From the IMG/VR virus record IMGVR_UViG_3300029305_006397: 64,000 bases of DNA; one strand, given 5' to 3'. The notes beneath the pieces are model-generated. The model was not told the DNA's origin. It saw only the letters and a list, made by a program, of their open reading frames with translations, and searched no databases. Position 1 is the stretch's first letter. Every line of letters starts with the position of its first letter. Position numbers and translations under genes: made by a program. The stretch is from a virus. This document shows positions 2,391-60,211 of this stretch, in pieces.

Positions 2391-2409
2391 TTTGCACTTA
2401 ATGTTTATT
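2391..2409 (-). promoter_or_regulatory. conserved phage motif copy
   Basis: AATAAACATTAAGTGCAAA on minus strand, 27 nt upstream of ATG 2363, overlapping the upstream stop codon. Confidence 0.45.
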
Positions 2410-5164: not shown

Positions 5165-5171
5165 CTACAAG

Positions 5172-5932: not shown

Positions 5933-6095
5933 TTTGTAGAGCTTTAATGGCGAGTTCGTCTACACCGGATTGATGACGAAGCTGCCATAGTTCTTTGCGA
6001 TCCTGTTGATTTGTAGTATGTCCATGTTTAAATCCAAGAGAATATGCCATAACGGATATAAGCAAGAGTATAAGCATTAAGAATGGGAAGTCCAT
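5862..6095 (-). CDS. small membrane protein
   Basis: N-terminal hydrophobic helix FPFLMLILLLISVMAY. Confidence 0.45.
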   Translation of the reverse strand: MDFPFLMLILLLISVMAYSLGFKHGHTTNQQDRKELWQLRHQSGVDELAIKALQNENDALRKLVVLHDSSTVRSINE

Positions 6096-6307
6096 AAAGA
6101 ATCACCACCGGAAGATGAATTATAGCGACGAACTGCCAACGCATGTGCAAAATTGCTTCTTACTTCTTCAGACATAGAATCGGCCTCTTCAAACCAGAAA
6201 ATATCAGGAGAAGTGGAATGACAGCACGGGCACTGATAATTCTTGTACATTTTATACATCACCACACCTGACGGACAATACGGACACAGAATTTCTTTTT
6301 TATTCAT
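6077..6307 (-). CDS. small zinc-ribbon protein
   Basis: CPYC...CPCC; start moved to internal ATG 6307 to avoid overlap. Confidence 0.5.
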   Translation of the reverse strand: MNKKEILCPYCPSGVVMYKMYKNYQCPCCHSTSPDIFWFEEADSMSEEVRSNFAHALAVRRYNSSSGGDSLWTSHS

Positions 6308-6494
6308 TTTGAACCAACTTCTTTCGTTTAGGATTACAATTAGGACAATATGTAGATTTGCCGATTGACCAACCTTTAGATCGCAAATGTTCTTTAGCTT
6401 CATTCATTGTAACTATTTGAGATGCCCACCATTCACCACATTGATCACAGGAGCAATGAATTTGAGATTCAAAAACAATAGGCATAGATTTCAC
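6300..6494 (-). CDS. small zinc-ribbon protein
   Basis: CSCDQC...CPNC. Confidence 0.55.
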   Translation of the reverse strand: MKSMPIVFESQIHCSCDQCGEWWASQIVTMNEAKEHLRSKGWSIGKSTYCPNCNPKRKKLVQNE

Positions 6495-6763
6495 CTCTCG
6501 TGGATAATTATCTCACCTTCAAAAAAGCCATAGGTGCTATCCACAAAATAACGATGGGTTTCCGCAGGATCATCTGCGGGACGCTCCTTGGTTAAAATCC
6601 AAAGATCGTCATCCTTCCAAGTAACAACTTCCAGTTCCTGACCAGCCTGAAGATCTACTTCATAGGTTCCGCCCCAATTTCGAGCAATACTTTGCTGAGT
6701 GCAGCCAGTTAATATCAAAACGAGAGCAAGAAACAAAACAAAGGTTACAATTTTCTTATTCAT
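6491..6763 (-). CDS. putative lipoprotein
   Basis: start moved to MNKKIVTFVLFLALVLILTGC (signal peptide plus lipobox), SD AAAGGAG upstream. Confidence 0.6.
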   Translation of the reverse strand: MNKKIVTFVLFLALVLILTGCTQQSIARNWGGTYEVDLQAGQELEVVTWKDDDLWILTKERPADDPAETHRYFVDSTYGFFEGEIIIHER

Positions 6764-6776
6764 AAAGTCACTCCTT

Positions 6777-7106
6777 TTAGCAATGCGTAATGACCGAATC
6801 CGCATCAGACTCTTCCTTATCCCAGTTATCAATGAGTTTTTGAATGTGTTCGACTTGCTTCTGAAGATAATCCAGATACATATCTTCACAAAACCACATG
6901 GCTTCTTCCAGGGAATCGGCTTCAAAATCGCCAAAGGATAGAATATCTGATGCGTACCACCAACGCCCCTGAACATCTTTATCAGCAGTAAGACTTAAAA
7001 TGTTGCTGCCGATCTGACCGACCCAATAATACATGGCATAAAAGCAACGATCATCTGAAAAGACTTCAAACCAATGCTTATTAATTTGCTTCATGTTTTC
7101 CGGCAT
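6777..7106 (-). CDS. hypothetical protein
   Basis: start at ATG 7106 with GGAGGAA SD. Confidence 0.55.
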   Translation of the reverse strand: MPENMKQINKHWFEVFSDDRCFYAMYYWVGQIGSNILSLTADKDVQGRWWYASDILSFGDFEADSLEEAMWFCEDMYLDYLQKQVEHIQKLIDNWDKEESDADSVITHC

Positions 7107-7506
7107 AATATGCTTCCTCCAAAAGATCAGGATTATCAAAAATATTGCCGATAACTTCACCACGAAGGATAAAATTTAAATCTGATAAGGCATAGACGGA
7201 ATCAATCAATCGTTCTTTGCGTCCTACAAAGAAAATTCCTTTGTGATAATAAACTTTCCCAACAGGCTCATTGATATCAAATTGACGAAGTAAAAATGGA
7301 TCAATACGGACAATATCATGTTCACAAACCTCGCAATTGTTTATATCTTTAATACCTATATAGCGTCCAACCGTATCAGGATCGACGGGATAGGCAACAC
7401 CGTTAAGGTCTGTAATAAAATGGCGTTCGTTATTAAGTTTGGTATAACCGCCAAATACCCATTCCCCTCCATTTAAGCGCTTACCGCGACATCTTAAATC
7501 GATCAT
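7081..7506 (-). CDS. YopX family protein
   Basis: GEWVFGGY..., C-terminal GEVIGNIFDNPDLLEE typical of YopX. Confidence 0.75.
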   Translation of the reverse strand: MIDLRCRGKRLNGGEWVFGGYTKLNNERHFITDLNGVAYPVDPDTVGRYIGIKDINNCEVCEHDIVRIDPFLLRQFDINEPVGKVYYHKGIFFVGRKERLIDSVYALSDLNFILRGEVIGNIFDNPDLLEEAYYAGKHEAN

Positions 7507-17738: not shown

Positions 17739-18233
17739 TTATTTATGCCTACAAATAACAACGCTAAGATTCGAGCCTTTGAACACATTTTCAGATACAT
17801 TCTGAATAACAAGGGAGTTTAAATTTCCAGGCATGGAAATGGCAATGGAAGCATTATTTTCTTCGGCCATTTGAGCAACGAGATGTATACCTCCTGCAAA
17901 GGCAGTAGCATCAATCTGGCGATCTTCGCGACAGCAATAAACGGGAACGATGTACTGATAATGAGAATCATAATCAGGCACGGATGTATTCTTGATAGTA
18001 TCAACCATAGTCAGCGCCCAGACTTCTGCGGGAATAAATTGAATAGAGCCGCGAGGATCGATGTTCTTTTTAGAACAATGACGTAGATATTTCAGGCATT
18101 CACGATGAACGTGGGGAAAAGCCTGATTAATTTTTGAAAGAGAGTTGAAACTCATGTCGCCGGAAATCGGCATGGGAATTACGATGTAATTTTCATCTGC
18201 ATCAAGGATATGTTCATTGATAATCTTCGGCAT
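17739..18233 (-). CDS. hypothetical protein
   Basis: tiled minus-strand ORF, no motif. Confidence 0.6.
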   Translation of the reverse strand: MPKIINEHILDADENYIVIPMPISGDMSFNSLSKINQAFPHVHRECLKYLRHCSKKNIDPRGSIQFIPAEVWALTMVDTIKNTSVPDYDSHYQYIVPVYCCREDRQIDATAFAGGIHLVAQMAEENNASIAISMPGNLNSLVIQNVSENVFKGSNLSVVICRHK

Positions 18234-18673
18234 TAGGCAACCTCCTGTTTGATTTTCGATTCAGAGTTTTTATGGTCTGCTTCAATTTGGGCCTCTTCGA
18301 ATGATGAGAATAATTTGGATTCAGGAACCTCAAGTTTAGCGTCTCCGCAAGAAACTTCATAGCTTATATCAGTATCCGTCTCATCGTCTGAGTCGTTATA
18401 TGCAATAACGGCCTCAACTGTAAAAGGATATTTATCTGCATAATACATCCATTGAGTTTTTGCTAGTTTCCCTGCTTGGCAAAAATATCTGGCAGGGGCA
18501 TCCCCAAAGACATGAAAAACGGCAGCGCATTTGGCAATGCGGTCGCCTTCAAGTCTTACTTCTCCAGCGCCTTTACAGGCGGGGCAAAGCAAACCAGGAA
18601 TCACGAGAGGACGATTTGAACTTTCAACACGATATACCTTGTCACCCACGTTGTATTTGCACTTAATGTTCAT
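18233..18673 (-). CDS. hypothetical protein
   Basis: start moved to MNIKCKY (ATG 18673, GGAGG SD); longer track ORF runs through tRNA-Gln. Confidence 0.6.
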   Translation of the reverse strand: MNIKCKYNVGDKVYRVESSNRPLVIPGLLCPACKGAGEVRLEGDRIAKCAAVFHVFGDAPARYFCQAGKLAKTQWMYYADKYPFTVEAVIAYNDSDDETDTDISYEVSCGDAKLEVPESKLFSSFEEAQIEADHKNSESKIKQEVA

Positions 18674-18774
18674 AGAAACCTCCTGAGATAAAATGAACCT
18701 GCAAACCAATAAAGGATAATCCGACGAATGGCGAAATATTTTTCCGACGATTGGTTGCAGGTTGAATTGTGAAA

Positions 18775-18849: not shown

Positions 18850-19234
18850 ACAGCAGAGAAGTTTAAACCTTGTGTTTTTTTAATGCGGAGCTAACGGGAC
18901 ATTGTTTCAGCTCAGGCATTTCTTCGTAACACATTACTCCTACTTCCAAAGGATGCACTTTAAGACCGTATGTCTTGCTGCTGCGCAGAGGTAGCATTTC
19001 CTCCGCTTGAACACTTTCGCAGTTCCCGGCACTAGACACTTTCGTAGTCTCCAACGCCATCGTTTGTATGCTCAATTTACTTTTACCCAGTAGCGAACTG
19101 GAGAAGGCTGAACCACCTGGCTATAAATACAACAATGGTCTAAGCGTTAGGCAGACGGTCAAGAATCTGCCCCACGGAATCGTACCGTGCCACCTGCGGT
19201 AAATAAGACGCAGGATCGAACCTCGCTTTTAGGA

Positions 19235-21316: not shown

Positions 21317-21402
21317 TGGTGAATACAATTGGATTCGAACCAATGCTCGACGACTGAGCCAAAGGCATGGGCCGTCCGTGCTAACCGCTACACCATATAT
21401 TC
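21317..21402 (-). tRNA. atypical 86-nt tRNA-like gene, expanded anticodon arm, isotype unassigned
   Basis: acceptor GAATATA/TGTATTC, D-arm GTGTAGCGGTTAGCAC, T-arm ATTGGTTCGAATCCAAT, ACCA end; about 13 extra nt in the anticodon arm. Confidence 0.45.
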
Positions 21403-21627: not shown

Positions 21628-21878
21628 ATATGTAATGCCCCTGGTTGTATTAAATACATATGCATATGGATAGCTACGTCCCGCGAAGGAGTATTCGCGT
21701 GTATGCCTGACTTAAATCACGGACTCCAATTGTATTACTATGTGACGCATACTTTCGTTTTTATCCGCTATCTGGACGGGGCAGGTTAAGCGATAACCTA
21801 TGCCTTTCGACAACCCAGCCTCTAATAAGAGGCTGACGCTCATGGCCTAATGTCCTGTTTCAACTCGCCATGACGAGC

Positions 21879-22450: not shown

Positions 22451-22469
22451 TTTGCACATAATGTTTATT
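22451..22469 (-). promoter_or_regulatory. conserved phage motif copy (AATAAACATTATGTGCAAA on minus strand)
   Basis: 9 nt upstream of the tRNA-Lys 5' end; one of 10 copies. Confidence 0.5.
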
Positions 22470-22509: not shown

Positions 22510-22528
22510 TTTGCATATAATGTTTATA
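22510..22528 (-). promoter_or_regulatory. conserved phage motif copy
   Basis: TATAAACATTATATGCAAA on minus strand, upstream of tRNA island. Confidence 0.45.
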
Positions 22529-22619: not shown

Positions 22620-22638
22620 TTTGCACTTAATGTTTATT
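22620..22638 (-). promoter_or_regulatory. conserved phage motif copy
   Basis: AATAAACATTAAGTGCAAA on minus strand, upstream of tRNA island. Confidence 0.45.
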
Positions 22639-22729
22639 AAAACATCTTAAATCGCCAACGACTGTAATAATACTACCACAAGATTCATAGCTTGTCAACC
22701 CCTTTTTCAAACTTTTTTGAAAAAAATTT

Positions 22730-27449: not shown

Positions 27450-28253
27450 TCAAATATATTCAAGACCAAGTTCCACGCTATTGAAAATGCTTTCTACTTC
27501 GGTATCCATGATGCCAATATACTTTAGTGTAACTTGCGGACTGGAATGACCAAACGCCTGTTGAAGTATAACCAGTGCTTTAGACTTATCTTCTGCGTTG
27601 TGCCATCTCCAATAGCCCCACGTTTTTCTCAGTGAATGCGACCCGATATTTTGTTTGATTCCAGCTTCCGCCGCTGTATCTTTTATAACTCTCCAGAGAT
27701 ATTTAGATTCAATCGGATCGTTTCCCTTTTGAGAAGGAAAAAGGTAATCGTCTAAATTATCTATTGGGTATTCTGAAATGAAATTCATAATTGCAGCCTG
27801 TACAGTTTGATTGAAAAACAGCTTTACAAATTTCTTTTGCTTCTTTTGCTTTTGCGGTTGCAAGGCATAGAATTGTTTAAAAGCAAGGTTTCCGGCATTA
27901 TTTCGTTCGAGAAAGAACGACCAGCGCAAAGTGCGAAGATCGGATGCCCGAACACCAACATTGATTCCGATCAAAAACAGTAGCTTGTTTCGCGAAGCAG
28001 TTTTTTTGCGACATACGCCAGAAGCTGACGTAATATGTTTATCAAATATGGCGATCATCGCCTGAATTTCTTCCTGGGTGCGAAATGCGTACACTTCTGA
28101 AGATTCGCCTGCAATTTTATTATTGCGGCTTTTATTGATCGAACCATCCAGATTGTACTTGACTTTCTTTTTCTGTTTACCGCCCTGCAAAACGCTAAGA
28201 GGAACGATGTTTGAAGTGTCCCGTTCAATCGGGAAAGCGACCACATTATTCAT
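27450..28253 (-). CDS. tyrosine recombinase / integrase
   Basis: R (GVRASDL), HSLRKT, GHSS..TLKYI catalytic-Tyr region; start placed at ATG 28253 overlapping upstream stop. Confidence 0.85.
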   Translation of the reverse strand: MNNVVAFPIERDTSNIVPLSVLQGGKQKKKVKYNLDGSINKSRNNKIAGESSEVYAFRTQEEIQAMIAIFDKHITSASGVCRKKTASRNKLLFLIGINVGVRASDLRTLRWSFFLERNNAGNLAFKQFYALQPQKQKKQKKFVKLFFNQTVQAAIMNFISEYPIDNLDDYLFPSQKGNDPIESKYLWRVIKDTAAEAGIKQNIGSHSLRKTWGYWRWHNAEDKSKALVILQQAFGHSSPQVTLKYIGIMDTEVESIFNSVELGLEYI

Positions 28254-28971
28254 GTACGATTTCAATCCTTTCTTTAATTTTTGATGTGTCAATGACCAAT
28301 TCATCTTCATCTCGGCCATTGAAATAAGCGAGGATTTCAGATTTATCGACGGTTGCCCTTTGAATATAACCTTTTTCATCGGCTATATCAAAGCGGTGGG
28401 CAAACCACTTTGCAGTTTCAAGACTCCAAGTCCACGAAAGACCATTGGGGTTACGACCCACAGAGACGCCACGATATACCGTAAGATGCTGAGGCAACCT
28501 TTCGTAATAAGCAAGTTCATCAGCATCCATGAGATACTTTTTATTTGCCTGACGGAACCACGATGCAGCTGTACGCAAGGAAACATTTGCATCTTGATTT
28601 GGATTTTCTACGTTTACCCATACAGTTGCCAACATCCGATCCCGTTCTTCCTTTGAAAGATAGGTGCGGATATGTTTTAGAAAAGTAAGCTGATAAGCTT
28701 TTCGGATCATCATGACGACGCCAAATGCATTAGTTTGCTTATCAATTACCGGAAGCATTGCTTCACGAGCAAGATTAAGCTCATTTGAATCTAACAGATT
28801 CAGCATTTTCCATTCGCCATTAATCATCGCTGGATGCGTTGCAGTTTCAAAAACAGGGTGATAGAGAATAAAAGGCAAATCGCTTTGATGGATATTCATA
28901 TATAAGAATATCCTTGCCATTCTCTTGACTTCATTCAAATCAGTTTGCCTTTTCATGCTCAATTCTCCCAT
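28246..28971 (-). CDS. possible ADP-ribosyltransferase-like protein (R-S-E pattern)
   Basis: C-terminal TVYRGV...GLSWTWS...EDELVID fits the R / S-x-T / E-x-E arrangement; weak. Confidence 0.3.
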   Translation of the reverse strand: MGELSMKRQTDLNEVKRMARIFLYMNIHQSDLPFILYHPVFETATHPAMINGEWKMLNLLDSNELNLAREAMLPVIDKQTNAFGVVMMIRKAYQLTFLKHIRTYLSKEERDRMLATVWVNVENPNQDANVSLRTAASWFRQANKKYLMDADELAYYERLPQHLTVYRGVSVGRNPNGLSWTWSLETAKWFAHRFDIADEKGYIQRATVDKSEILAYFNGRDEDELVIDTSKIKERIEIVHE

Positions 28972-28976
28972 TTATT

Positions 28977-28995
28977 TTTGCACATTATGTTTGTA
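28977..28995 (-). promoter_or_regulatory. conserved phage motif copy
   Basis: TACAAACATAATGTGCAAA on minus strand, 6 nt upstream of the ATG at 28971 and just after a hairpin. Confidence 0.45.
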
Positions 28996-29070
28996 TAAAA
29001 TGCATAATCAGGTTTGCAAGCCCCTGATCTGATATTATTTTACCATATTTTGTACAGAAAATCAATCCCT

Positions 29071-29092
29071 TAAACATGATATGCAAAAATTA
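29071..29092 (+). promoter_or_regulatory. conserved phage motif copy, plus orientation
   Basis: TAAACATGATATGCAAAAATTA, divergent from the copy at 28977. Confidence 0.35.
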
Positions 29093-47479: not shown

Positions 47480-47575
47480 AAGTGTTTCCTCCTATCTTTC
47501 CTTATGCGTTTGGCTTTAGGGGCTTGTGACCTTATGCCTTGCCGCATTAACAGGGCTTATGCCCTGCCACTCTGC

Positions 47576-47761
47576 TTAATCTCGATTGGAAAGCTCCGTG
47601 TGATAGATATGCACACTCTGAAGGCGTCTGCTTCCAAATTTCCGTCGAAATTCCTCTTTCGCATCTTTCATGTTTGCCTTGCTACCGTTTCGATGATCGC
47701 TTACATACTCAAATTCTCCGTAATCGTGACCATCATCATAAAGCGCAATGTAGTTTTTCAT
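47576..47761 (-). CDS. hypothetical protein
   Basis: tiled minus-strand ORF, no motif. Confidence 0.55.
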   Translation of the reverse strand: MKNYIALYDDGHDYGEFEYVSDHRNGSKANMKDAKEEFRRKFGSRRLQSVHIYHTELSNRD

Positions 47762-50230: not shown

Positions 50231-50298
50231 CCATACCCACGCCCCGGCAGGGCGTGACGCTCACGGCTTAAATGGCTTTTTATAGTCGCCGTGACGAC
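50231..50298 (-). ncRNA. pistol ribozyme (P-2)
   Basis: GUCG-UCACGGC-GAC-UAUAAAAAG-CCAU-UUAA-GCCGUGA-GCG-UCACGCCC-UGCCG-GGGCGUGG-GU-AUGG; loop/GCCGUGA pseudoknot and CCAU/AUGG helix; predicted G/U cleavage between 50236 and 50235. Confidence 0.75.
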
Positions 50299-50610
50299 TC
50301 AGACAATTATGCAGCGTTTGAACGGATTTTCGCAGGGGTCGCAACCGAAACCGAAATTTTCTCCGTATATATCGATATACTGAAGTCCAGCGAATTTGCC
50401 GTTCTGAATGGTTTTTAACTCCATTGTAGCGCGGCGCATAGCCTGTTTTGCCTGTTTAATGGTTACGTCGTCGATATTGTAGAATCTGTTTAGCTTGTTT
50501 TGAATTTTATTCAAGAAATTCATTGCAAGGTCATTTGTAACATTCTTTTTATCGGACTCCATGAAACAGTCAAACCCGTATGCACGAAGATAAAAACCCT
50601 GTTTTTTCAT
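50299..50610 (-). CDS. hypothetical protein
   Basis: stop abuts pistol P-2. Confidence 0.55.
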   Translation of the reverse strand: MKKQGFYLRAYGFDCFMESDKKNVTNDLAMNFLNKIQNKLNRFYNIDDVTIKQAKQAMRRATMELKTIQNGKFAGLQYIDIYGENFGFGCDPCENPFKRCIIV

Positions 50611-50633: not shown

Positions 50634-50698
50634 TTGAACCCGCCCCAAACGGGGCGACGCTTTGGGCCTAATCAACTATTTAAAGTCGCCCAAACGAC
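50634..50698 (-). ncRNA. pistol ribozyme (P-1)
   Basis: GUCG-UUUGGGC-GAC-UUUAAAUAG-UUGA-UUAG-GCCCAAA-GCG-UCGCCCC-GUUU-GGGGCGG-GU-UCAA, near-identical in layout to the published pistol consensus; predicted G/U cleavage between 50639 and 50638. Confidence 0.85.
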
Positions 50699-50955
50699 TA
50701 AACGCGCATTACATTGTCAAGATAAATGCGCATTGCACCCTTACGAATATATGCCCGACCTGCCGTCGAATAGTGGACTTTATGACGATGAAAACCCACA
50801 TATCCTTCAGGGTTAACCCATGCCGCAATATAATCGCATTCGAATTTATCGCCGTCGTCGGGTTCCCAAAGTGCAACGCCGAAACAGTTGGAAAAATGGC
50901 AAACGCCAACCGGGGCAATATTAGAATAACGCTTGTAAAGTGCTACATTTTTCAT
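50698..50955 (-). CDS. hypothetical protein
   Basis: stop codon G is the first nt of pistol P-1. Confidence 0.55.
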   Translation of the reverse strand: MKNVALYKRYSNIAPVGVCHFSNCFGVALWEPDDGDKFECDYIAAWVNPEGYVGFHRHKVHYSTAGRAYIRKGAMRIYLDNVMRV

Positions 50956-51047: not shown

Positions 51048-51368
51048 TTATCTCAAGTTGTCGTTATATGCAATATCCCTGTTTTTGATTGCAATTTCGA
51101 TTCGCTTTTTGCTAACGTCGCCGCCGAAAATGTGACGGGCGTATTCGCGCAAAAACTCATAGAGATATTTTGCGGTTGTATTGGAGTAACACCAATTCCG
51201 ACCCAAAGTCAACGCCGCCGCGCCCTGCGCGTCATAATCAACGATTGCAATAACGCTGTCATAAGACTGGAAAATAACAGCATTATTGGAGTGAATGATA
51301 AACTGGTTTGCAACGGGGCGACCACTTCGGGGGGATACCATGTTCCTAACACTTGCATATTTCATCAT
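51048..51368 (-). CDS. hypothetical protein (first gene of the ribozyme-punctuated operon)
   Basis: GGAAGGTG SD; conserved motif copy 27 nt upstream. Confidence 0.6.
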   Translation of the reverse strand: MMKYASVRNMVSPRSGRPVANQFIIHSNNAVIFQSYDSVIAIVDYDAQGAAALTLGRNWCYSNTTAKYLYEFLREYARHIFGGDVSKKRIEIAIKNRDIAYNDNLR

Positions 51369-51395: not shown

Positions 51396-51414
51396 TTTGC
51401 AAGTAATGTTTATT
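51396..51414 (-). promoter_or_regulatory. conserved phage motif copy
   Basis: AATAAACATTACTTGCAAA on minus strand, just upstream of 51048..51368. Confidence 0.45.
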
Positions 51415-51856: not shown

Positions 51857-51885
51857 TTGCCTTTTGCGTACAAACGTGGTATAAT
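51857..51885 (+). promoter_or_regulatory. sigma70-type promoter (TTGCCT-17 nt-TATAAT, TG extension)
   Basis: read directly; followed by a GC-rich untranslated segment of about 225 nt before 52123. Confidence 0.55.
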
Positions 51886-52122: not shown

Positions 52123-52341
52123 ATGTACGATAAAGATAAAGCGATAAAAAGACAAAACGATTTTAATAAATCGAATTATGATAGATTAAACACGACTATA
52201 CCGAAGGGACGCAAGGCCGATATAGTTGCATATTGCGATAGTATTGGAACCACGCCAAACGGCTTAATTAATGAATTGTTGCGGTTTGAATTGGGGTTTA
52301 CACCTGAACAATGGAAGGAACGGGCGACGGCTGAAGAATAG
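52123..52341 (+). CDS. Arc/ribbon-helix-helix-type DNA-binding protein
   Basis: NYDRLNTTIPKGRKADIVAYCDSIGTTPNGLINELL; paralog of 31474..31680. Confidence 0.55.
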   Translation: MYDKDKAIKRQNDFNKSNYDRLNTTIPKGRKADIVAYCDSIGTTPNGLINELLRFELGFTPEQWKERATAEE

Positions 52342-52446
52342 TAATACTGTATTTTTTGTTTAATGTTGCTATACTTTATAGCTAACCGTTTACGGTTAAT
52401 TATATGCGGTTAATTAACCGTGTTTGAAAATTGGGGCGAATTTTAG

Positions 52447-52470
52447 CGACGGCGCAAACCGTCGTTTTTT
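52447..52470 (+). terminator. intrinsic terminator
   Basis: CGACGG-CGCAAA-CCGTCG followed by TTTTTT. Confidence 0.6.
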
Positions 52471-53125: not shown

Positions 53126-53154
53126 TTGACAACTAACCTTATCTGTGTTAAAAT
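53126..53154 (+). promoter_or_regulatory. sigma70-type promoter (TTGACA-17 nt-TAAAAT, TG extension)
   Basis: read directly; points into the plus-strand block. Confidence 0.6.
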
Positions 53155-53180: not shown

Positions 53181-53198
53181 TTTGCACTTAATTTTTAT
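53181..53198 (-). promoter_or_regulatory. conserved phage motif copy (left-facing half of inverted pair)
   Basis: ATAAAAATTAAGTGCAAA on minus strand. Confidence 0.45.
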
Positions 53199-53200
53199 CA

Positions 53201-53218
53201 ATAAACATTATGTGCAAA
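53201..53218 (+). promoter_or_regulatory. conserved phage motif copy (right-facing half of inverted pair)
   Basis: ATAAACATTATGTGCAAA on plus strand. Confidence 0.45.
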
Positions 53219-53242
53219 TTATATTGCGTTGCTTATGTTTAT

Positions 53243-53376
53243 GCGCAGCAACTAACATCTCCATGGAGCGCGGAAGCGCGACCGTAACCCCGGAGGGCGT
53301 AAGCCCGTAGGTCGTAGCCCCCCTTCCCCAGAGGGAAGGTATGAAGCGCAGCGTAAGCAAGCGACCCCTGCTGCGC
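53243..53376 (+). ncRNA. candidate structured RNA (GC-rich multi-hairpin element)
   Basis: 8-bp closing helix GCGCAGCA/TGCTGCGC enclosing hairpins CGCG-GAAG-CGCG, GGGC-GUAA-GCCC, CCUUCCC-CAGA-GGGAAGG; local GC far above genome average. Confidence 0.35.
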
Positions 53377-53537
53377 CCCACGCGCGGCAGTATACTATAA
53401 TCTTTCTAAGTTAATCTATATAAGTATTGAAGTGAAAATTTCCACGCAAATCTGTGGAAAAAAACGCACCCTCTATAAATATTTCCACAAAATCGCGTGG
53501 ATTTTTTATCAGAGGCTGAAAGGAGGGAAACATGTGA

Positions 53538-54389
53538 TTGGATTTTCAAGATAAAGACAAAACTGAATATCCTGAAACACGAAATAAAGAGCTAAGTTAT
53601 TATCAACAACGTTTTTTGAAACTGCCAAGAATGATAATCGAAAATTTCAACATCGGAGATCAGCGTCTAGCTGTATATACTTATTTGGCAATACGATGTG
53701 GACTTGATTATAAAGTTGACACAGATTTAAAAACGATCATTCTTTCTTTCGGTAAAAAACCCGATAGACATCCAGGTCAAATAAATGATAAAACTGAAAA
53801 CTCCTTATCAAAACTGATCGAGCTTGGGTATATAAAAAAGTTAAGCCAGGATTGCGATTTAAATGTCAATCAAACCTTCTTTTTCGATCAGGAATGGATA
53901 GATAACAATTGCCCTCAATTCACGATTGCTTATATAGACGAAATCGAACGAATACTGAGCAGTGACATTTCAAATAAAGACATCACCCTTTTAGTGTTCG
54001 CTTATTTAAGATTAAAGATACACAGGCGTCCAAATTCTATGCCAAAGAAATATTGGGGAAATCAGGAAGGCTATAAGGCCGATAATCCAGAGGTTTATAA
54101 CTGTTATTATCGAGACATTGCTAAAGAGCTTGGACTAACAGTTCATGTAGTTCAAAAGGCGGTTGATGCTTTAATTGAGATTGGCTTAATATATGCAGAA
54201 GAACTCCCCAGACATTTGGTGAAAAGCAGCAATGGACAAGAAAGATGGATGACTGGACAAACACTTTTTTGCAATACATACAAACGCGATGCAAAATATG
54301 AGTTTGTCAAAGGTAAACAGTATTATGAGAAAGAGATCAAAAATAAAAAGAAAATAATAGAACAAGCGAAAGGAGGTAACTCCATATGA
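53538..54389 (+). CDS. putative DNA-binding protein (winged-helix), possible replication or transcription initiator
   Basis: TTG start 10 nt after AGGAGGG; YRDIAKELGLTVHVVQKAVDALIEIGLIY HTH-like; iterons upstream. Confidence 0.35.
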   Translation: MDFQDKDKTEYPETRNKELSYYQQRFLKLPRMIIENFNIGDQRLAVYTYLAIRCGLDYKVDTDLKTIILSFGKKPDRHPGQINDKTENSLSKLIELGYIKKLSQDCDLNVNQTFFFDQEWIDNNCPQFTIAYIDEIERILSSDISNKDITLLVFAYLRLKIHRRPNSMPKKYWGNQEGYKADNPEVYNCYYRDIAKELGLTVHVVQKAVDALIEIGLIYAEELPRHLVKSSNGQERWMTGQTLFCNTYKRDAKYEFVKGKQYYEKEIKNKKKIIEQAKGGNSI

Positions 54390-54589
54390 ATACGCAAAAT
54401 CATACAGGTATTTATCCTGTAAGTGCTTTTACGACCAAAGATGATCCAGATTTAAAAGCGGAAGATTTTAACAGCGGTGCAGATTGGCGAGAAATACATT
54501 CTTTAATCAGGGACATATCAGACGATGATTGCTTTGCAGAATACGCTCATGATTTTTTTGAAGAATATGAATCGGTTATTGCTGATTAA
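54386..54589 (+). CDS. small acidic protein
   Basis: ATGA overlap with upstream gene. Confidence 0.5.
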   Translation: MNTQNHTGIYPVSAFTTKDDPDLKAEDFNSGADWREIHSLIRDISDDDCFAEYAHDFFEEYESVIAD

Positions 54590-54648
54590 TCTAAAATTCT
54601 CAGACTAAGTAAGGATGAATGAAATGGGTAAATAAAGAAGGTGTTTGT

Positions 54649-57534
54649 ATGCCTCTGGATAAGCAAATTCAAATTATCTCGACTGATACTGCGGGATTCT
54701 ACAGCAACCATGAGGCAAGGTTGCATTTGAAAAATCATAAACTTCGAAGCGAAAGAAAAATACTTAAAAAAGGCGGAGTCGTTAAAAGAGCAAATGGAGA
54801 CAAACGGATCGTTATTGGTTTAGATGAAATTGAAAATAAGCTTGCCGTATTTGGTATTTACTCTACTGACATAGAAGACATCATAAACGAACGCTTTAAT
54901 TTTGACGACTATACCTTAGAGGATATAGGCGAAATTAAGCATTTGATTTCCGATTACAACTTGAAAAAGAAGCTAATTGAAATCAAGAACGCTGCAATCA
55001 GCGAAAGCAAAGAGCAGCTTTTGAAGCTCTTGGCGAATAAAGTCCAGGAGAACGTAAGCTCAAATGGAAGGCATCATACGAGGTACTTGAGAGAGAATAG
55101 CGTTGTAAACAGTAATATCATTTCGGTATTTGATTCGTCCTTTACGAGAATGATCGGAGCAAAGGAAAATGAATTATGCGAAGATTTTATGGTGATTCAG
55201 GTATTTTACTTTGATGTATTGAAAGATATTCTGTATCATGGGTATACATACAAGGGCGAGAAATATATTTATTTTACTTCATCTGCCGGACAGATCAGGA
55301 CAAAAAAAGCGGTTTTTGTAAAAGAAAAAATCTGGAACGAGCATGAGCGTACAATTATGTGTGGATTAACGCTTGACGAGATAAATCGCAAGGGAGGTAA
55401 CAATCCCAATAAGCATCTGGCTTATATGGCTTTGAGCAATTCAGCCACTGATTTGTGGCCTGAGTTCGATATTGATAAAGCCATTGTAATCGATGATTTT
55501 GAAACCAATGTATTTGGAACCTACGATCTCGTGGATGATGCGGACTATACTATTACCAGGGTTTCAGATTTTGTTCCTATATCTCATACAGATGGCGCTG
55601 GTATGATACTCCCCTGTGCCTTTGGAAAGACCCAGAAAAATAAAATGGTTCGATTACCGTGGATTAAAGGATTGCTTGGCGTTTTTGATTTTAGGAAGTT
55701 TATAATTGATCAAGGAGCTTCGCCAGTAATTCGAGATATTTACGGAAAAGAACACAATTTGATTTCCGAAGATATCCAGGTAGTTTTCACCAAATCTCAG
55801 CATAAAATGTGGAAATACTATAACTCCTGGAACGAATATAAAGCGGCTTATAAGAAATATGGTTGTACTGCCGGATATACCAATGAAGAAGAGTTGAATA
55901 TTCCTAATGCGTCCATCAACTATCAAATGCTTCAAACACTGACGGATATTACTCCGGAAGAGATTTTAAAAATTGCAAATAAATCTATTGGCTGTTTGGA
56001 AAATATGACGAGCAGTATAGATAACATTCGAGCAGCATTTGGTGGAGCAAATTATAATCAGGATAAGAGTAGTTTGAACAAAGCATTAGATTTATACCCT
56101 GATCTATTAAACGATGATTGGATTAAGAGAACCCTCCGGGCAATTCGCGATAGCTTGATCAAGGATTATAAAGCTGGAAAATTGAGAGTGCGAGGCAAAT
56201 ACACATTCTTACTCCCTGATTTTTATGCTGCATGCCAATATTGGTTCCTTGGGATCGAGGAACCGGAAGGGCTTTTGCAAGATGGAGAGGTATTTTGTTG
56301 GTTATTTCCTGAAAGCGAAAAATTAGATTGCTTGCGAAGTCCTCATTTATATCGCGAACATCCTATTCGCAGGAATGTCGCATGGATAGGTTATAAAGAA
56401 AGACAAGCCAAGATCAGAGAATGGTTTGGTACAAACGCAGTTTATACGAGCTGCCATGATTTGATCAGCAAGATTTTGCAGTTTGATGTTGACGGAGATA
56501 AGAGTCTGGTGGTGGCAGATAAAACTATTATTGACGTTGCAGAGCGTAATATGCAAGGAATTGTTCCTTTGTATTATAACATGCGTAAAGCTTCTCCAGT
56601 GCAATTGAATAACGAAACGATCTATAACGGGTTGAACGCAGCATTTGTTGGCGGTAATATTGGAATATACAGCAATAATATTTCAAAGATTTGGAATAGT
56701 GAAGTTTTCATAAGCGGCAGCAATGAAGAACGTCGGGAAGCATTGGATATTATTAAGTTGCTTTGTATGGAAAATAATTTCGTTATCGATTATGCCAAAA
56801 CTCTGTATAAACCAGAACGCCCTAAGCACATTCACGAAAGAATCCTGGCCTTTACAAGAAATAAGCTTCCTCATTTTTTCGTTTATGCTAAAGACAAGCT
56901 GGACGATCAAGTGGAAAAACGCAATGGCAGTTTCGTAAATCAGTTGGATGATATAATACCTGTCCCCAGGTTCCATTTCAAAAAACTTGGTTTAGAAAAA
57001 GTTGAACATAGGTTTTTAATGCATGATTCAAATTGCACTGCAAGAGTAGCTTTTACAGATTCGGGTAAAATCATTTCAGAAGAGACAGACCCTTTAATTT
57101 TGGCGTACCATGCATTAAATAAAAAATATTTTTTGGACTTGGGAGAAGTATTACAGGTGAACTATTGCAATACTGAGTTGATATCAATATACGCTAAAAA
57201 TGGTGCTCTTGCCAAGAAGCAGCAAATGATCGAAGAAACGAAAAGCATTCTATCTGAATTTGGATATAATCAAAATCAAATTGTAGATATTTTAGTCGAT
57301 TATGTGTATGGGAAAAATAGGTCGAATGCAAAAGCACTGCTATGGCTTTGCTATGGCGATTCGATTTATAAGAATATGCTACAATATTTAATTCCGGATT
57401 TTAAGACGATACAGTGCGTAGATTGCGATGCATTATTTTCTGTTTCTGCTAAAAATCAATATGCATGCCGTTGTCCAGAATGTGCTAAAAAGCAGAAAAA
57501 GGCCGAAAGGCAATTAAAAAAGATGCTGTCTTAA
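54649..57534 (+). CDS. YonO-like single-subunit RNA polymerase (two-barrel, RdRP-related family)
   Basis: FTSSAGQIRTKKAVF, LRSPHLYREHP and metal-binding QFDVDGDKSLVV motifs in the order seen in YonO and cellular RdRP-type polymerases; start placed at ATG 54649 (track start 54619). Confidence 0.65.
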   Translation: MPLDKQIQIISTDTAGFYSNHEARLHLKNHKLRSERKILKKGGVVKRANGDKRIVIGLDEIENKLAVFGIYSTDIEDIINERFNFDDYTLEDIGEIKHLISDYNLKKKLIEIKNAAISESKEQLLKLLANKVQENVSSNGRHHTRYLRENSVVNSNIISVFDSSFTRMIGAKENELCEDFMVIQVFYFDVLKDILYHGYTYKGEKYIYFTSSAGQIRTKKAVFVKEKIWNEHERTIMCGLTLDEINRKGGNNPNKHLAYMALSNSATDLWPEFDIDKAIVIDDFETNVFGTYDLVDDADYTITRVSDFVPISHTDGAGMILPCAFGKTQKNKMVRLPWIKGLLGVFDFRKFIIDQGASPVIRDIYGKEHNLISEDIQVVFTKSQHKMWKYYNSWNEYKAAYKKYGCTAGYTNEEELNIPNASINYQMLQTLTDITPEEILKIANKSIGCLENMTSSIDNIRAAFGGANYNQDKSSLNKALDLYPDLLNDDWIKRTLRAIRDSLIKDYKAGKLRVRGKYTFLLPDFYAACQYWFLGIEEPEGLLQDGEVFCWLFPESEKLDCLRSPHLYREHPIRRNVAWIGYKERQAKIREWFGTNAVYTSCHDLISKILQFDVDGDKSLVVADKTIIDVAERNMQGIVPLYYNMRKASPVQLNNETIYNGLNAAFVGGNIGIYSNNISKIWNSEVFISGSNEERREALDIIKLLCMENNFVIDYAKTLYKPERPKHIHERILAFTRNKLPHFFVYAKDKLDDQVEKRNGSFVNQLDDIIPVPRFHFKKLGLEKVEHRFLMHDSNCTARVAFTDSGKIISEETDPLILAYHALNKKYFLDLGEVLQVNYCNTELISIYAKNGALAKKQQMIEETKSILSEFGYNQNQIVDILVDYVYGKNRSNAKALLWLCYGDSIYKNMLQYLIPDFKTIQCVDCDALFSVSAKNQYACRCPECAKKQKKAERQLKKMLS

Positions 57535-57696
57535 ATAGCACAAAATGAGCGCTAAAACCATTGAAATTCAATGGTTTTAGCATTTACTATAATTTGAAAT
57601 ATGCCGAATTTCAGTGTTTTTTGTTTTATCAAAATTGACAGAATCGGATAGGAGATGTTCATTTGGGAGAAATTTCCTGTACGCGGAGGAATAAAT

Positions 57697-58056
57697 ATGA
57701 ATAAACAAAATATATCTAAAAGCTATACTAAAGCGATGTTGATTCGTGATACGGCAGATAAGTGTTTTTTGTCTGAAACTCCCGTTGAAAGAATGGGAGT
57801 TAAACGAGCGTTAGCAATTACAACCGCCGTATACAACACTTTAGAGGCAAAAGTAAAAGAGCTACTTTCCTGTGCTGCTCCTGGAGTAGATATAGCTATA
57901 AAGCTATTCGAAGGGATCACATTAAAGGGAAGGCATGTTCCTGAAATTATCAAGCAGAACAATCTAACGGGTGAAATGATGGTGTATAAGGCACACATTA
58001 AACCGGAAGCGCAATTTTCAAAAAGACTTAGAGATTCGCTGATTGTTCAAAATTAA
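57697..58056 (+). CDS. HU/IHF-like DNA-binding protein
   Basis: MNKQNISK..., IKLFEGITLKGRHVPE...GEMMVYKAHIKPEAQFSKRLRD follows the HU arm layout; start at ATG 57697 with GGAGGAA SD. Confidence 0.45.
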   Translation: MNKQNISKSYTKAMLIRDTADKCFLSETPVERMGVKRALAITTAVYNTLEAKVKELLSCAAPGVDIAIKLFEGITLKGRHVPEIIKQNNLTGEMMVYKAHIKPEAQFSKRLRDSLIVQN

Positions 58057-58222
58057 TCCTATATATCCAGCGGAAACGCTGTTTATATATAAACGGGTCG
58101 GGACTTTGAGATAGGTTCCGGCCTGACTTCTTTCATTCATATTTACACCTTTCTCTAGCTGCGCCACGGTTGTTAAAAGCAGCCGTGGTGTTATTTTGAA
58201 GGTAACTGTGATGAAAAGTTTG

Positions 58223-58300
58223 ATGGAAGTAGTTTAAGGCAAAACAGCTGAAGGTACAAAACAAAAACGGAAGTTGAGGGTGCAAATCCCTCCTTCCATC
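58223..58300 (+). other. tRNA-like element without anticodon arm (T-loop UGCAAAU)
   Basis: acceptor ATGGAAG/CTTCCAT, D-like hairpin GTTT-AAGGC-AAAC, A-rich linker, T-arm GAGGG-TGCAAAT-CCCTC. Confidence 0.35.
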
Positions 58301-58305
58301 CGTAT

Positions 58306-58383
58306 TGCGGAGTGGAGAAGCGGACTATCTCGCCAGCCTCATAAGCTGGAGATCGCTGGTTCGAATCCAGCCTCTCGCAACCA
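58306..58383 (+). tRNA. tRNA-Met(CAT), irregular acceptor stem
   Basis: D, anticodon (CUCAUAA) and T arms align with bacterial tRNA-fMet layout; ACCA end; one extra nt or mismatch in acceptor. Confidence 0.7.
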
Positions 58384-58386
58384 CAT

Positions 58387-58461
58387 GTGGAGTTCGTATA
58401 ATGGTTAGTACCTGAGATTTTCAATCTCAAAACAGGGGTTCAACTCCCCTACTCCTCACCA
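58387..58461 (+). tRNA. tRNA-Glu(TTC)
   Basis: 75 nt cloverleaf; anticodon loop UUUUCAA; CCA encoded. Confidence 0.8.
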
Positions 58462-58630
58462 GTTAGTTTTTTGCTGTAATGATCTTCGGACTTATGGCTT
58501 AAATCGCATGCTTCGGATTCCTTCGGGGCCGAGGCTTTATTTTGAAAAATTGTTCGCTAGTCAGTATGCGACTAATAAAATACTGATCAGAAACTACCAT
58601 CTGATTTCTTTTAAATCAGGTGGTTTATAT

Positions 58631-58707
58631 CAGGGTGTATATCAGTTTGGTAGATGGCCGCATTTGGGATGCGGAGGCCGCTGGTTCGAATCCAGTCACC
58701 TTGACCA
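58631..58707 (+). tRNA. tRNA-Pro(TGG)
   Basis: 77 nt cloverleaf; C1-G72; anticodon loop UUUGGGA; CCA encoded. Confidence 0.85.
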
Positions 58708-58748
58708 TGATCGTACTCAAGAATGCTACGGCGCTTGGGTCTATTTAT

Positions 58749-58776
58749 AGGGTGGCGATGCCACCCTTTTATTTTT
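58749..58776 (+). terminator. intrinsic terminator inside tRNA island
   Basis: AGGGTGGC-GAT-GCCACCCT followed by TTTTATTTTT. Confidence 0.65.
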
Positions 58777-58780
58777 ACAT

Positions 58781-58870
58781 GCTGATATGGCCGAGTCTGG
58801 CTTAAGGCGGTGGTCTTGAAAACCATTGGAGGTAACACTCACGGAGGTTCGAATCCTTCTATCAGCGCCA
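58781..58870 (+). tRNA. tRNA-Ser(TGA)
   Basis: 90 nt type II; anticodon loop CUUGAAA; CCA encoded. Confidence 0.85.
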
Positions 58871-59023
58871 GTATTAGCTCTCCTGCATAAAAATGTGCTA
58901 TTGATGACAGAAACAGGAGATAAGAGTCCCGCAAGTAGACACGCGGTTCAGTGCTCGTACAGGTGTTTTGTTGAGCAAGCAGTCTATTAAGAATAAACAC
59001 TGACAGCAGGAAAGACTGCATAT

Positions 59024-59115
59024 GGAGAGGTGGCTGAGTGGCTGAAAGCGGCACCCTGCTAAGATGTTTGCCCTGGTGACAGGGCACGAGAGTTCGAATC
59101 TCTCCCTCTTCGCCA
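59024..59115 (+). tRNA. tRNA-Ser(GCT)
   Basis: 92 nt type II; anticodon loop CUGCUAA; long variable arm; CCA encoded. Confidence 0.8.
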
Positions 59116-59286
59116 AACAAATGTGGTTCCGGTAGAGCCTGACGCATCAGTACCGACCTTGATGGAAAGGGTATCCCGTAGCTAAGACGAGTCCATAGGC
59201 GGGGATTTCTGCCACGTTGATTTAGCTCATCTGCCAAGTGCAGAAGGAGTTCCTGGATGTGTTACACAACTAGCGCATCCTGATTT

Positions 59287-59361
59287 GGTTCTATAGTTTA
59301 GGGGCTAGAATGCCAGCCTGTCACGCTGGAGACACGGGTTCGATTCCCGTTAGAGCCGCCA
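59287..59361 (+). tRNA. tRNA-Asp(GTC)
   Basis: 75 nt cloverleaf; anticodon loop CUGUCAC; CCA encoded. Confidence 0.85.
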
Positions 59362-59420
59362 ATTTGCCTCACACGCCTCTTTGTCGTATGACAAATGCGG
59401 ACTAAGTGAGGTTTTTTCAT

Positions 59421-59496
59421 GGGGTTATAGCTCAGTTGGAAGAGCGCGTGCTTTGCAAGCATGAGGTCAAGGGTTCGAGACCCTTTAGCTCCACCA
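59421..59496 (+). tRNA. tRNA-Ala(TGC)
   Basis: 76 nt cloverleaf; G3-U70; anticodon loop UUUGCAA; CCA encoded. Confidence 0.85.
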
Positions 59497-59498
59497 AT

Positions 59499-59570
59499 CG
59501 CCGGGTGGTGTAAATGTTAGCACCGCAGACTATGATTCTGCGAATAAAGGTTTAAATCCTTTTCCGGCGA
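59499..59570 (+). tRNA. atypical tRNA with anticodon ATG (formally His), no CCA
   Basis: acceptor CGCCGGG/TCCGGCG, D-arm GTGT..GCAC, anticodon arm GCAGA-CUAUGAU-UCUGC, T-arm AAAGG-TTTAAAT-CCTTT. Confidence 0.5.
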
Positions 59571-59903
59571 TTATGTTATCTATTTCCCAACATACTGTCA
59601 TGCGTGGGTGGAATAAGAAGAGACGGGCGTTTTCGGTCGGCATAAACCGAAGTTTGGCATTTGAGGTCAAATGAGTTTGATGAATGCAATCCCGTGCTGC
59701 TATGCGGTATTTGCAGGAGAACAACAGGGGTTTGCGTATAACCACAAGGCAGCTAGGTACAATCCGAAAGAAAAACGGTTATAAAGGGCGTCCCGCCACC
59801 TATATCCCAAGTGTGGAACGATAAAGCAGGTGTTTCGCTGCCTATAAATGCGAAATTTAATCAGCTCCGTGTTGGATATTTTGACATGCGGAGCATTTTA
59901 TAT

Positions 59904-59979
59904 GGCATCATAGCTCAGTCGGTAGAGCAGCTGGCTGTTAACCAGCAGGTCAAGAGTTCGAGCCTCTTCGGTGCCTCCA
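59904..59979 (+). tRNA. tRNA-Asn(GTT)
   Basis: 76 nt cloverleaf; anticodon loop CUGUUAA; CCA encoded. Confidence 0.85.
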
Positions 59980-60100
59980 CGGGTAGATAAGATAACAAAA
60001 CGCGCCACTACCCCAAGGCAGATACATACGCATTCGAGAAGCGCAATGGCTGCGATCAAATTGGCAGATGTGTAGGCGGCAGACTTAACTGTCTTTATTT

Positions 60101-60177
60101 GCTGTCATAGCTACAATTGGCAGAGCGACGGATTTGTAATCCGTAGGTTCAGAGTTCGAGTCTCTGTGGCAGCTCCA
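60101..60177 (+). tRNA. tRNA-Thr(TGT), second copy
   Basis: 77 nt cloverleaf; anticodon loop UUUGUAA; CCA encoded. Confidence 0.85.
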
Positions 60178-60211
60178 AACTGTAGCAGCTACGAAAGGTT
60201 AGGAATTTAGA

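Follow-up and report, generated by a model that had tools for sequence, protein, structure and literature searches.

The stretch of viral DNA considered here (IMG/VR record IMGVR_UViG_3300029305_006397, 64,000 nucleotides, referred to below as the window) comes from a gut-type, SPbeta-like phage, and carries a recurrent motif of about 20 nt, AATAAACATTAWGTGCAAA, two copies of which stand back-to-back at 53181-53218. This pair sits in a divergent hub, i.e., between leftward genes that extend from ~52 kb to position 1 and rightward genes that begin at 53.5 kb. To the right of the hub, the gene order is p283 (winged-helix protein), p67 (acidic protein), a homologue of YonO, the RNA polymerase (RNAP) of SPbeta, p119 (119 amino acids, aa) and an island of 10 tRNA genes, followed in the same direction by an exonuclease, a YonG homologue and the terminase. 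The left arm contains many small ORFan genes, four self-cleaving ribozymes, an island of 12 tRNA genes, RtcB and a tyrosine-recombinase-family gene, and ends in an SPbeta-like replication module (AAA_24/YorG, YorH, Pol III alpha and others). Between the hub pair and the end of the RNAP gene lie the following features:

53240-53395, plus strand: GC-rich structured leader with tandem GNRA-type hairpins, from the hub pair to p283 (fold z-score -4.0)
53538-54389, plus strand: p283, a two-winged-helix protein of 283 aa, first gene of the RNAP operon and first after the hub pair
54386-54589, plus strand: p67, small and acidic, encoded between p283 and the RNAP and inherited together with p283
54619-57534, plus strand: YonO-like single-chain RNAP, whose true start is perhaps the ATG at 54649

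The RNAP open reading frame (ORF; 971 aa) is 43.6% identical to SPbeta YonO and has a Pfam RdRP match, in agreement with an earlier interpretation of this DNA made from its letters alone (the sequence-only reading), which had recognized a YonO-like polymerase. The sequence covered amounts to ~76 kb of a ~146-kb contig and includes ~8.5 kb to the left of the window and 3.7 kb to its right. An identical phage (99.9-100%) is present in several JGI, ENA and Logan metagenome assemblies, and its ribbon-helix-helix (RHH) protein is found on one 146-kb contig. Searches of GenBank phages, GTDB genomes and JGI metagenomes with the RNAP returned no close relative; the RNAP relatives, at ≤65% identity, come from gut and rumen metagenomes and from Clostridia/Lachnospiraceae assemblies, and some are integrated in large bacterial contigs. 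Together with the recombinase gene, these integrated relatives hint at a temperate or plasmid-prophage lifestyle.

When up to three mismatches are allowed, AATAAACATTAWGTGCAAA has nine matches in the window, compared with a mean of 0.10 in shuffled sequences, none of 100 of which reaches nine. A position-weight matrix (PWM) scan at ≥16 bits identifies exactly 10 sites, against 0.075 expected from Markov simulations, and the recurrence noticed in the sequence-only reading is thus real. An 11th, near-perfect copy lies on the same phage outside the window, 3 kb past its left end (sequence L302). The copies are:

53200-53218, plus strand: right arm of the hub pair, 0 mismatches, PWM score 31.2
53181-53199, minus strand: left arm of the hub pair, 2 mismatches
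51396-51414, minus strand: within the leader of gene 51048-51368, the first leftward early gene, with the ATG 27 nt downstream
29069-29087, plus strand: weak inverted copy CTTAAACATGATATGCAAA, PWM score 16.5 (0.075 such matches expected per window)
28977-28995, minus strand: before a 236-aa gene, 20 nt to the ATG, 41 nt downstream of a sigmaA-type promoter
22620-22638, minus strand: first of three tandem direct copies before the 12-tRNA island, 31 nt after a sigmaA-type promoter
22510-22528, minus strand: second tandem copy, 110 nt start-to-start from the first
22451-22469, minus strand: third tandem copy, 59 nt from the second, ending 8 nt before the 5' end of tRNA-Lys (22442)
18656-18674, minus strand: over the ATG and first six codons (MNIKCK) of ORF 18233-18672, with a perfect 3'-terminal 15-mer
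2391-2409, minus strand: in the 41 nt that separate a 396-aa gene from the AAA_24 (YorG/Sak4-like) gene, with the ATG 27 nt downstream
7292-7310 of L302: over a methyltransferase stop codon, ending 23 nt before the next ATG

The conserved block is contiguous and spans positions 2-19, with position 12 free (A, T or C) and no internal dyad, which gives an asymmetric site of 19-22 bp. Copies are dispersed over >55 kb, and all 10 strong ones are co-oriented with the local genes, the weak 29069 copy alone being inverted (10/11 overall). Four copies lie 20-27 nt ahead of a start codon, in each case with the ribosome-binding site (RBS) downstream of the motif, and two of these four occupy 30-41-nt gaps of the replication operon with no host-type promoter nearby. 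The 51396 copy is placed between a conserved leader hairpin and the RBS, and the 18656 copy lies downstream of the GGAGG RBS of its ORF. In the hub, the two copies form inverted repeat I4 (18-bp arms, 89% complementary), at distances of 320 nt and 1.8 kb from the next genes, with the 53200 copy facing p283, p67 and the RNAP. From 53219 to ~67.7 kb, i.e., over the 14.5 kb to the right of the hub, there is no copy; this stretch contains the RNAP, the second tRNA island, the exonuclease, YonG, terminase, portal and YonD.

Several details of the sequence-only reading are confirmed by this survey, namely the inverted pair in the hub, the three tandem copies before the tRNA island and a single exception to co-orientation, which is the weak 29069 copy. 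Its description of the motif as polar and devoid of sigma70 -35/-10 boxes likewise agrees with our data, acceptable hexamers being absent in most copies. The genome-wide scan that it proposed, run on the window and its flanks, yielded the 10 window sites and the L302 copy. All copies that it listed were found; however, it overlooked the 18656 copy, its site at 29071 corresponds to the weak inverted 29069-29087, and the gap to tRNA-Lys is 8 nt, not 9 nt. Furthermore, its assignment of copies to the plus strand was incorrect, as those from 2391 to 51396 read on the minus strand, like the genes that are encoded there.

The motif itself is not a sigmaA promoter. A sigmaA or extended -10 reading, in either orientation, was rejected on the grounds that no register offers usable -35/-10 boxes, and a -10 box further downstream is excluded because the RBS lies too near the motif. 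No phage sigma factor was detected among the ~60 ORFs scanned. There is, on the other hand, a clear association with neighboring sigmaA-type promoters, three of which carry a TG extension and directly precede or flank motif copies:

53126-53154, plus strand: the best sigmaA-type promoter of the window, TTGACA-17-TAAAAT with TG extension
29037-29065, minus strand: TTGATT-17-TAAAAT with TG extension, flanked by the divergent copies at 29069 (plus) and 28977 (minus)
22670-22698, minus strand: TTGACA-17-TAGTAT with TG extension, upstream of the triple copies

Thus, three of the seven motif loci follow strong TG-extended promoters, at a distance of 26-45 nt. This association is not attributable to chance, because just 19 promoters of such quality occur in the 128 kb formed by both strands of the window. 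In the hub, transcription from promoter 53126 reads through the motif pair into p283, p67 and the RNAP; the left arm of the pair begins 26 nt, and the right arm 45 nt, past its -10 box. At 29 kb, the weak copy adjoins the -35 box of promoter 29037-29065 and points into the antisense strand of a gene. Leftward sigmaA-type promoters are few between 29.4 and 53 kb.

The identity of the protein that may recognize the motif was approached through natural variants. An exact-motif scan of IMG/VR gave only single chance matches, and PWM scans over 2.9 Mb of related loci gave none above 20 bits; look-alikes in a clade with ~48% RNAP identity were dismissed as conserved coding sequence, and an in-register likeness to the relatives' TATAACTATTAAGGTTATA (12-13/19) is suggestive only, the positions at the first-left leader being different. 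The informative relatives were reached only through homologues of p283 and of the RHH protein, and compare with the window as follows:

L319: p283 93%, p67 90% and RNAP N-terminus 95% identical; RHH protein 69%, with the L312-type beta-strand; window motif
L312: p283 51%, p67 or its equivalent 38% and RNAP 74% identical; RHH protein 66%; a different motif, TATAGYAACTAAAYGWATAGAT
L317: p283 48%, p67 or its equivalent 39% and RNAP 94% identical over the N-terminal 271 aa; RHH protein of a third type, partial; AGTWACTAAATR twice in the hub

L319 retains promoter 53126 and has the motif at all three homologous positions, i.e., both arms of the hub pair and the 51396 site in the first-left leader, with single substitutions at variable positions; its counterpart of the 53200 copy is AATATACATTATGTGCAAA, and L312 and L317 have no such copy of the motif. 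L312 lacks the window motif even at 9 bits. Its early-left arm is 85-96% identical to the window at the nucleotide level, and TATAGYAACTAAAYGWATAGAT occurs at the same two positions in the same orientations: the hub copy begins 9 nt past the -10 box of the equivalent hub promoter, and the second copy lies between the conserved leader hairpin and the conserved RBS of the first-left gene, where the segment equivalent to 51396 has been swapped for one with AGCAACTAAACGAATAGAT between conserved flanks. L317 also has an equivalent of promoter 53126, TTGACA..TATCAT, with one AGTWACTAAATR copy within its 17-bp spacer and the other just past its -10 box. Three types of p283 (48-52% pairwise identity) thus pair with three types of motif, and a 93% identical p283 (L319) pairs with the same motif.

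From these alignments, the motif follows the type of p283, not the RNAP and not the RHH protein, because L319 keeps the motif despite a swapped RHH gene, and L317 changes it despite an RNAP N-terminus that is 94% identical. The site in the first-left leader co-varies with the hub/p283 block across the recombination patch in between. Judged from sequence, the L312 and L317 elements have the geometry of operators, since two of the three types have the element on the host-type promoter itself, overlapping its start site or spacer.

The RHH protein had looked promising as the binder, because the window and L312 versions have different beta-strands but conserved helices; this candidate was rejected, as L319 combines an L312-type RHH protein with the window motif. 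The RHH gene (52123-52341, plus strand) is a 72-aa ORF with a ribbon-helix-helix pattern, situated between the early-left arm and the hub, with its own sigmaA-type promoter (51857-51885) and terminator (52445-52466, plus strand). Its DNA-reading beta-strand varies by lineage (RLNTTIP, RIAINVP, RIEASIP) over conserved helices, and the gene has been exchanged independently of the motif.

The position of many copies in early polycistronic leaders invites the suggestion that the motif acts in the sense transcript, as a signal for RNA processing or translational control, or as a nut-like site of antitermination. The sense strand carries 10 of the 11 copies, copies precede the RBS by 8-17 nt or cover the start codon, three follow closely on sigmaA-type start sites, as nut sites would, and the same arm contains three pistol ribozymes and one twister. 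However, no secondary structure is conserved in the motif, the next genes are far from the hub copies, three tandem copies ahead of a tRNA are unlike translational control, and the anti-oriented 29069 copy and the promoter-spacer equivalents in L317 are DNA-level features. An RNA-level signal is accordingly improbable. The ribozymes are located between small early genes and within the tRNA island, at 21809-21878, 50231-50299 and 50634-50699 (pistol) and at 47517-47576 (type-P5 twister), all on the minus strand, and their presence suggests that long early transcripts would be cut. In the homologous arm of L312 (1740-4467) there are four repeats with a hammerhead-like core, CTGACGAG...GAAAC. Further RNA matches in the window comprise RAGATH-36, drum RNA and a tRNA-like Rfam match that is absent from the ARAGORN list, as well as one tRNA called by ARAGORN with an odd 2-nt anticodon; the coordinates of these Rfam and ARAGORN oddities are 19031-19192 (minus), 59675-59782 (plus), 58223-58300 (plus) and 21317-21402 (minus).

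The sequence-only reading had proposed the motif as the promoter of the YonO-like polymerase. In its simplest form, i.e., a T7-type model in which the RNAP reads the motif by itself, the proposal draws on the contiguous, asymmetric block of ~20 bp with strict orientation, short gaps and a short leader, as in the promoters of T7, T3, SP6 and K11 and those of P23-45 gp96/gp64; on the RNAP operon having the best host-type promoter of the window; and on the conservation of the motif in L319, whose RNAP N-terminus is 95% identical, as against its replacement in L312, whose RNAP is 74% identical. Shape and orientation do fit, but the proposal is disfavored because L317 combines a nearly identical RNAP N-terminus with another hub element, because the L312 and L317 equivalents overlap a sigmaA-type start site or spacer, because late genes within the 14.5 kb right of the hub are not preceded by any copy, and because the 18656 copy lies behind the RBS, within the start of an ORF. 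The 29069 copy, moreover, would direct transcription into antisense. SPbeta YonO is required only for 37 late genes and uses a single start site downstream of yonO, the sequence determinants of which have not been defined (PMC5467207). This SPbeta promoter, P_YonO (start upstream of yonK), shares with our system the polymerase family and the neighborhood, in which the RNAP is followed by yonJ/yonG/yonF-like late genes; in contrast, the syntenic place in the window (57535-60211) has no motif copy, and no window-type motif with ≤3 mismatches occurs in the SPbeta stretch bounded by the published P_YonO primer-extension primers.

The wider family points the same way. RNAPs of L120, L127, L128 and L142 are 95-98% identical to each other, yet their early-arm repeats are entirely different, i.e., ATCGTTAACAA (19-38 copies), AGTTTTCAACA with CAACACGCAAGTGTTG, or none of these; by sequence comparison, early-arm repeats are decoupled from the polymerase. 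The element that is retained beside the RNAP gene is instead TTAAGGTTATA, an imperfect palindrome (ATAACC..GGTTAT) that at least 17 non-redundant relatives carry 30-110 nt past the gene, and often also 20-60 nt ahead of it and at the start of the early-left arm, e.g., at L137 12932, L162 9982 and 12880, and L119 5330. Its conservation extends over RNAPs with mutual identities of 61-98%, and it may include the RNAP stop codon in some phages. By position, it corresponds in the window to a perfect 15+1+15 palindrome that is unique, has AACC/GGTT arms and lies at 57551-57581, the place of P_YonO in SPbeta. We regard this element as a candidate polymerase-linked signal. Recognition of the motif by the RNAP alone is the least probable of the readings weighed here.

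Other repeats were encountered in these relatives. In the region 1-6200 of L142/L128, L142 contains 38 copies of ATCGTTAACAAC within 6 kb, some of them in 30-bp tandem arrays; in L127, arrays of AGTTTTCAACAG and palindromes of TCAACACGCAAGTGTTGCGTGA occur at 3800-7400; and in L136 (200-8700), ACTACTTGACAA, a sigmaA-type -35 box with a conserved extension, precedes nearly every small operon and the RNAP operon. In SPbeta (NC_001884, minus strand), two copies of AAT(A/G)(G/T)TCATTTATGA(A/G)GGT lie 160 nt apart in the yonN-yonK gap (~60440 and ~60600), one of them between the published P_YonO primer-extension primers; in the window this element occurs at chance level (five matches, 4.0 expected).

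Attention therefore shifts to p283, since it is p283 that the motif tracks. By sequence, p283 gives weak Pfam winged helix-turn-helix matches. Its AlphaFold2 model, based on a 31-sequence alignment, has a predicted local distance difference test score of 92 and a predicted template modeling (TM) score of 0.91, and its fold resembles that of Rep and O proteins: the best 19 Foldseek matches in the PDB are all RepE54 or the complex of Rep with a DNA unwinding element (E 4.5e-5 to 3e-3), and matches in BFVD include helix-turn-helix proteins, 'Replication protein O' and 'Replication initiator protein' (E ~1e-9, TM-score up to 0.62). Weaker matches are TFE-alpha, TFIIE and Pol III C82/RPC62 (E 0.02-0.05). 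A weak homologue is the neighbor of parM on a plasmid of Clostridium botulinum. Some 70-100 related loci share the cassette p283-p67-RNAP-p119, and in every p283 lineage the gene is immediately preceded by direct or inverted repeats peculiar to that lineage.

Initiators of the RepE type bind as monomers to asymmetric 19-22-bp iterons through two winged helices, and as dimers to an inverted repeat by which they repress their own promoter (RepE, RepA, pi). Our preferred reading, to which we give a probability of about 0.45, is that the motif copies are iteron/operator-like sites of p283 and that the hub pair is its autoregulatory operator. The size and asymmetry of the sites, the inverted pair at the gene's own promoter and the co-variation with protein type all fit a Rep-type system. 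As with RepE, RepA and pi (Rep_3) and lambda O, a protein with two winged helices, here a predicted one, is encoded beside asymmetric 19-22-bp sites; as with Rep operators, an inverted pair is located at the gene's own promoter (26-64 nt past the -10 box of 53126), and the site sequence shifts with the protein type. In mechanistic terms, the hub pair, lying between a strong sigmaA-type promoter and p283, would serve as the autoregulatory operator in the manner of RepE dimers at the repE promoter, whereas each single asymmetric copy would be iteron-like and take one p283 molecule via both winged helices. Placed just past host-type promoters, or just before RBSs and tRNA genes, p283 on these single copies would gate transcription by the host RNAP through roadblock or repression, and the units so gated would be the early-left arm, the tRNA island, the recombinase operon, the replication operon and its own p283/RNAP operon. 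The sites might also link transcription control to replication initiation at the hub. The repressor operator that the sequence-only reading had named as a fallback comes close to this proposal, with p283, a phage DNA-binding protein, as the favored binder.

Between the hub pair and p283, the GC-rich leader consists of units of the type CGTARCCCC-hairpin-GGTCG, the core of which is conserved in four lineages (alignment and base pairs) while the flanks differ; the equivalents are L319 2956-3125, L312 8815-8985 and L317 1075-1250. It has no Rfam match, and may represent either a leader RNA or an origin feature acting at the DNA level. The GC skew turns at 52-54 kb, i.e., at the hub, which is compatible with an origin, but the change of coding strand at the same place confounds this signal. 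A pair of hairpins, TTTCCAC-N8-GTGGAAA (53435-53460 and 53482-53507), immediately precedes the start of p283 and could be attenuators or the site of another protein. Similar TTTCCACAAAAAACGTGGACAA pairs are present in relatives (L120-type loci) upstream of a p283 homologue that is only ~34% identical.

A second close parallel is found in SPbeta. Its SPBRE elements are operators of MrpR, with 11-12 copies, all co-oriented and lying between promoter and RBS, including copies before the yonP-yonO operon and inside the start of yorM, and none at the late operon (PMC10516654). The window motif resembles SPBRE/MrpR (YopR) in that both are ~20 bp, AT-rich and asymmetric, occur in ~10-12 co-oriented copies and lie between a sigmaA promoter and the RBS, with a copy before the RNAP operon, a promoter-flanking pair (yonX in SPbeta), a copy inside the start of an ORF and none at the late operon; the leaders of early operons, that of the RNAP operon included, are thus occupied in both. 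The two differ in sequence, SPBRE being CAAATACAAAWAATATGTATA (derived from SPbeta) and the window motif AATAAACATTAWGTGCAAA; the window motif is absent from SPbeta, and no homology to SPBRE or to the P_YonO region was found. They also differ with respect to sigmaA boxes, which the window motif lacks: at NC_001884 64140, 99581, 110901, 116150 and 129205, SPBRE forms the spacer of TAGACA-17-TATAAT (or TATCAT), so that several SPBREs are promoters in their own right and the MrpR operator is built into SPbeta early promoters. Finally, MrpR is a catalytically dead protein of the tyrosine-recombinase fold, of which no homologue was found in the window.

This parallel raises the alternative that the motif is the operator of another regulator, e.g., an MrpR-type master lysogeny repressor encoded in the remaining ~70 kb, with p283 a linked bystander. 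Besides the likeness to SPBRE in copy number, orientation and position, the alternative is favored by the tyrosine-recombinase-family gene downstream of the 28977 copy, by the relatives integrated in bacterial contigs and by the sequence covered being only about half of the contig. Against it, the first-left site co-varies with the hub/p283 block across the recombination patch, the nearby RHH protein is excluded by L319 and no further DNA-binding protein appeared among the ~60 ORFs scanned. The recombinase itself (27450-28379, minus strand, 309 aa; a PHROG integrase with XerH as its best PDB match) has apparently all of its catalytic residues intact and has no BLASTP similarity to YopR or YopP, and no window ORF shows tblastn similarity to yopR or yopP. 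We consider a separate regulator doubtful.

The main rival to the operator reading is that the motif is a promoter after all, because polar, RBS-proximal copies in tight gaps look promoter-like. Here p283 would not be, or not only be, a replication initiator, but a tandem-winged-helix initiation factor that gives the YonO-like RNAP its specificity, in a role like that of TFE/TFIIE or RPC62; host RNAP would make p283 and the RNAP from promoter 53126, and the p283-RNAP complex would then fire at every copy. Dependence of the motif on p283 type is predicted by this model as well, and the conserved cassette, the weaker Foldseek matches to TFE-alpha, TFIIE and C82/RPC62, the contiguous polar sites 20-27 nt before ATGs and 8 nt before a tRNA with RBS downstream in four of four cases, the lack of sigmaA boxes in the motif and the scarcity of leftward sigmaA-type promoters between 29.4 and 53 kb are all in line with it. 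Two-barrel single-chain RNAPs of phage P23-45 use strongly conserved motif promoters (doi 10.1101/2022.12.01.518664), and Forrest et al. left the factor requirement of YonO open (PMC5467207). However, the best fold matches of p283 are replication initiators and not transcription factors, the L317 and L312 equivalents lie inside or on a sigmaA-type promoter, late genes are without a copy as far as ~67.7 kb, the 29069 copy faces antisense and the 18656 copy stands behind its RBS, and SPbeta has YonO and no p283 homologue. A promoter role acting through p283 is in our judgment unlikely, but retains a real share of the probability.

Several observations weigh against the operator reading that we prefer. 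Classical iterons form regular tandem arrays beside an AT-rich unwinding element, whereas the window copies are polar with transcription and spread over >55 kb in operon leaders, the hub yielded no tandem array, and the sole direct cluster (22.45-22.64 kb) is irregular (59 and 110 nt) and 31 kb from p283. The 10/11 co-orientation, the spacing of 20-27 nt before starts and the 30-41-nt gaps are promoter-like features that a simple operator does not need. There is no recognizable sigmaA-type promoter upstream of the 2391, L302, 51396 and 18656 copies, the first of which belongs to the replication module. The match of p283 to Rep_3 is structural only, with low Foldseek TM-scores to RepE (0.33-0.47), no Rep Pfam family match and no PDB sequence match. 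The TTTCCAC..GTGGAAA pair (53435-53507), which is nearer to p283, could be its real site. Co-variation is drawn from four lineages and three motif types, with the first-left site, ~2 kb off and across the swapped RHH patch, as the sole independent test because the hub sites are linked to p283; the L317 RNAP comparison covers the N-terminal 271 aa, about a third of the protein; and domain-level co-variation of winged helices WH1 and WH2 of p283 with the motif halves was not seen.

By analogy, the element would work most like SPBRE/MrpR and the Rep operators and iterons, its closest counterparts. It nevertheless differs from SPBRE in sequence, is not clustered as iterons are and, unlike what an RNAP promoter would show, does not co-vary with the RNAP (L317) and is missing from the late genes as far as ~67.7 kb. 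It is best regarded as a variant of protein-binding regulatory repeats, unusual in its apparently initiator-like binder and in the genetic coupling of that protein to a YonO-type polymerase.

How YonO-type RNAPs find their promoters has been an open question since 2017 (PMC5467207), and the motif had looked like the answer. Our results redirect the search to p283, as a regulator, or perhaps a specificity factor, that is genetically coupled to the polymerase in ~100 phages, and to the palindrome TTAAGGTTATA that flanks the RNAP gene, with its window counterpart at 57551-57581. Should p283 prove to be the specificity factor, the motif would define, for the first time, a class of promoters used by YonO-type single-chain RNAPs, and the cassette present in ~100 gut and rumen phages would be a portable two-component module in which promoter choice is reset by a swap of the winged-helix protein, as in L317. 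If p283 binds the motif as we propose, an initiator-type protein would act as a genome-wide gate of early transcription, an unusual use of the iteron principle.

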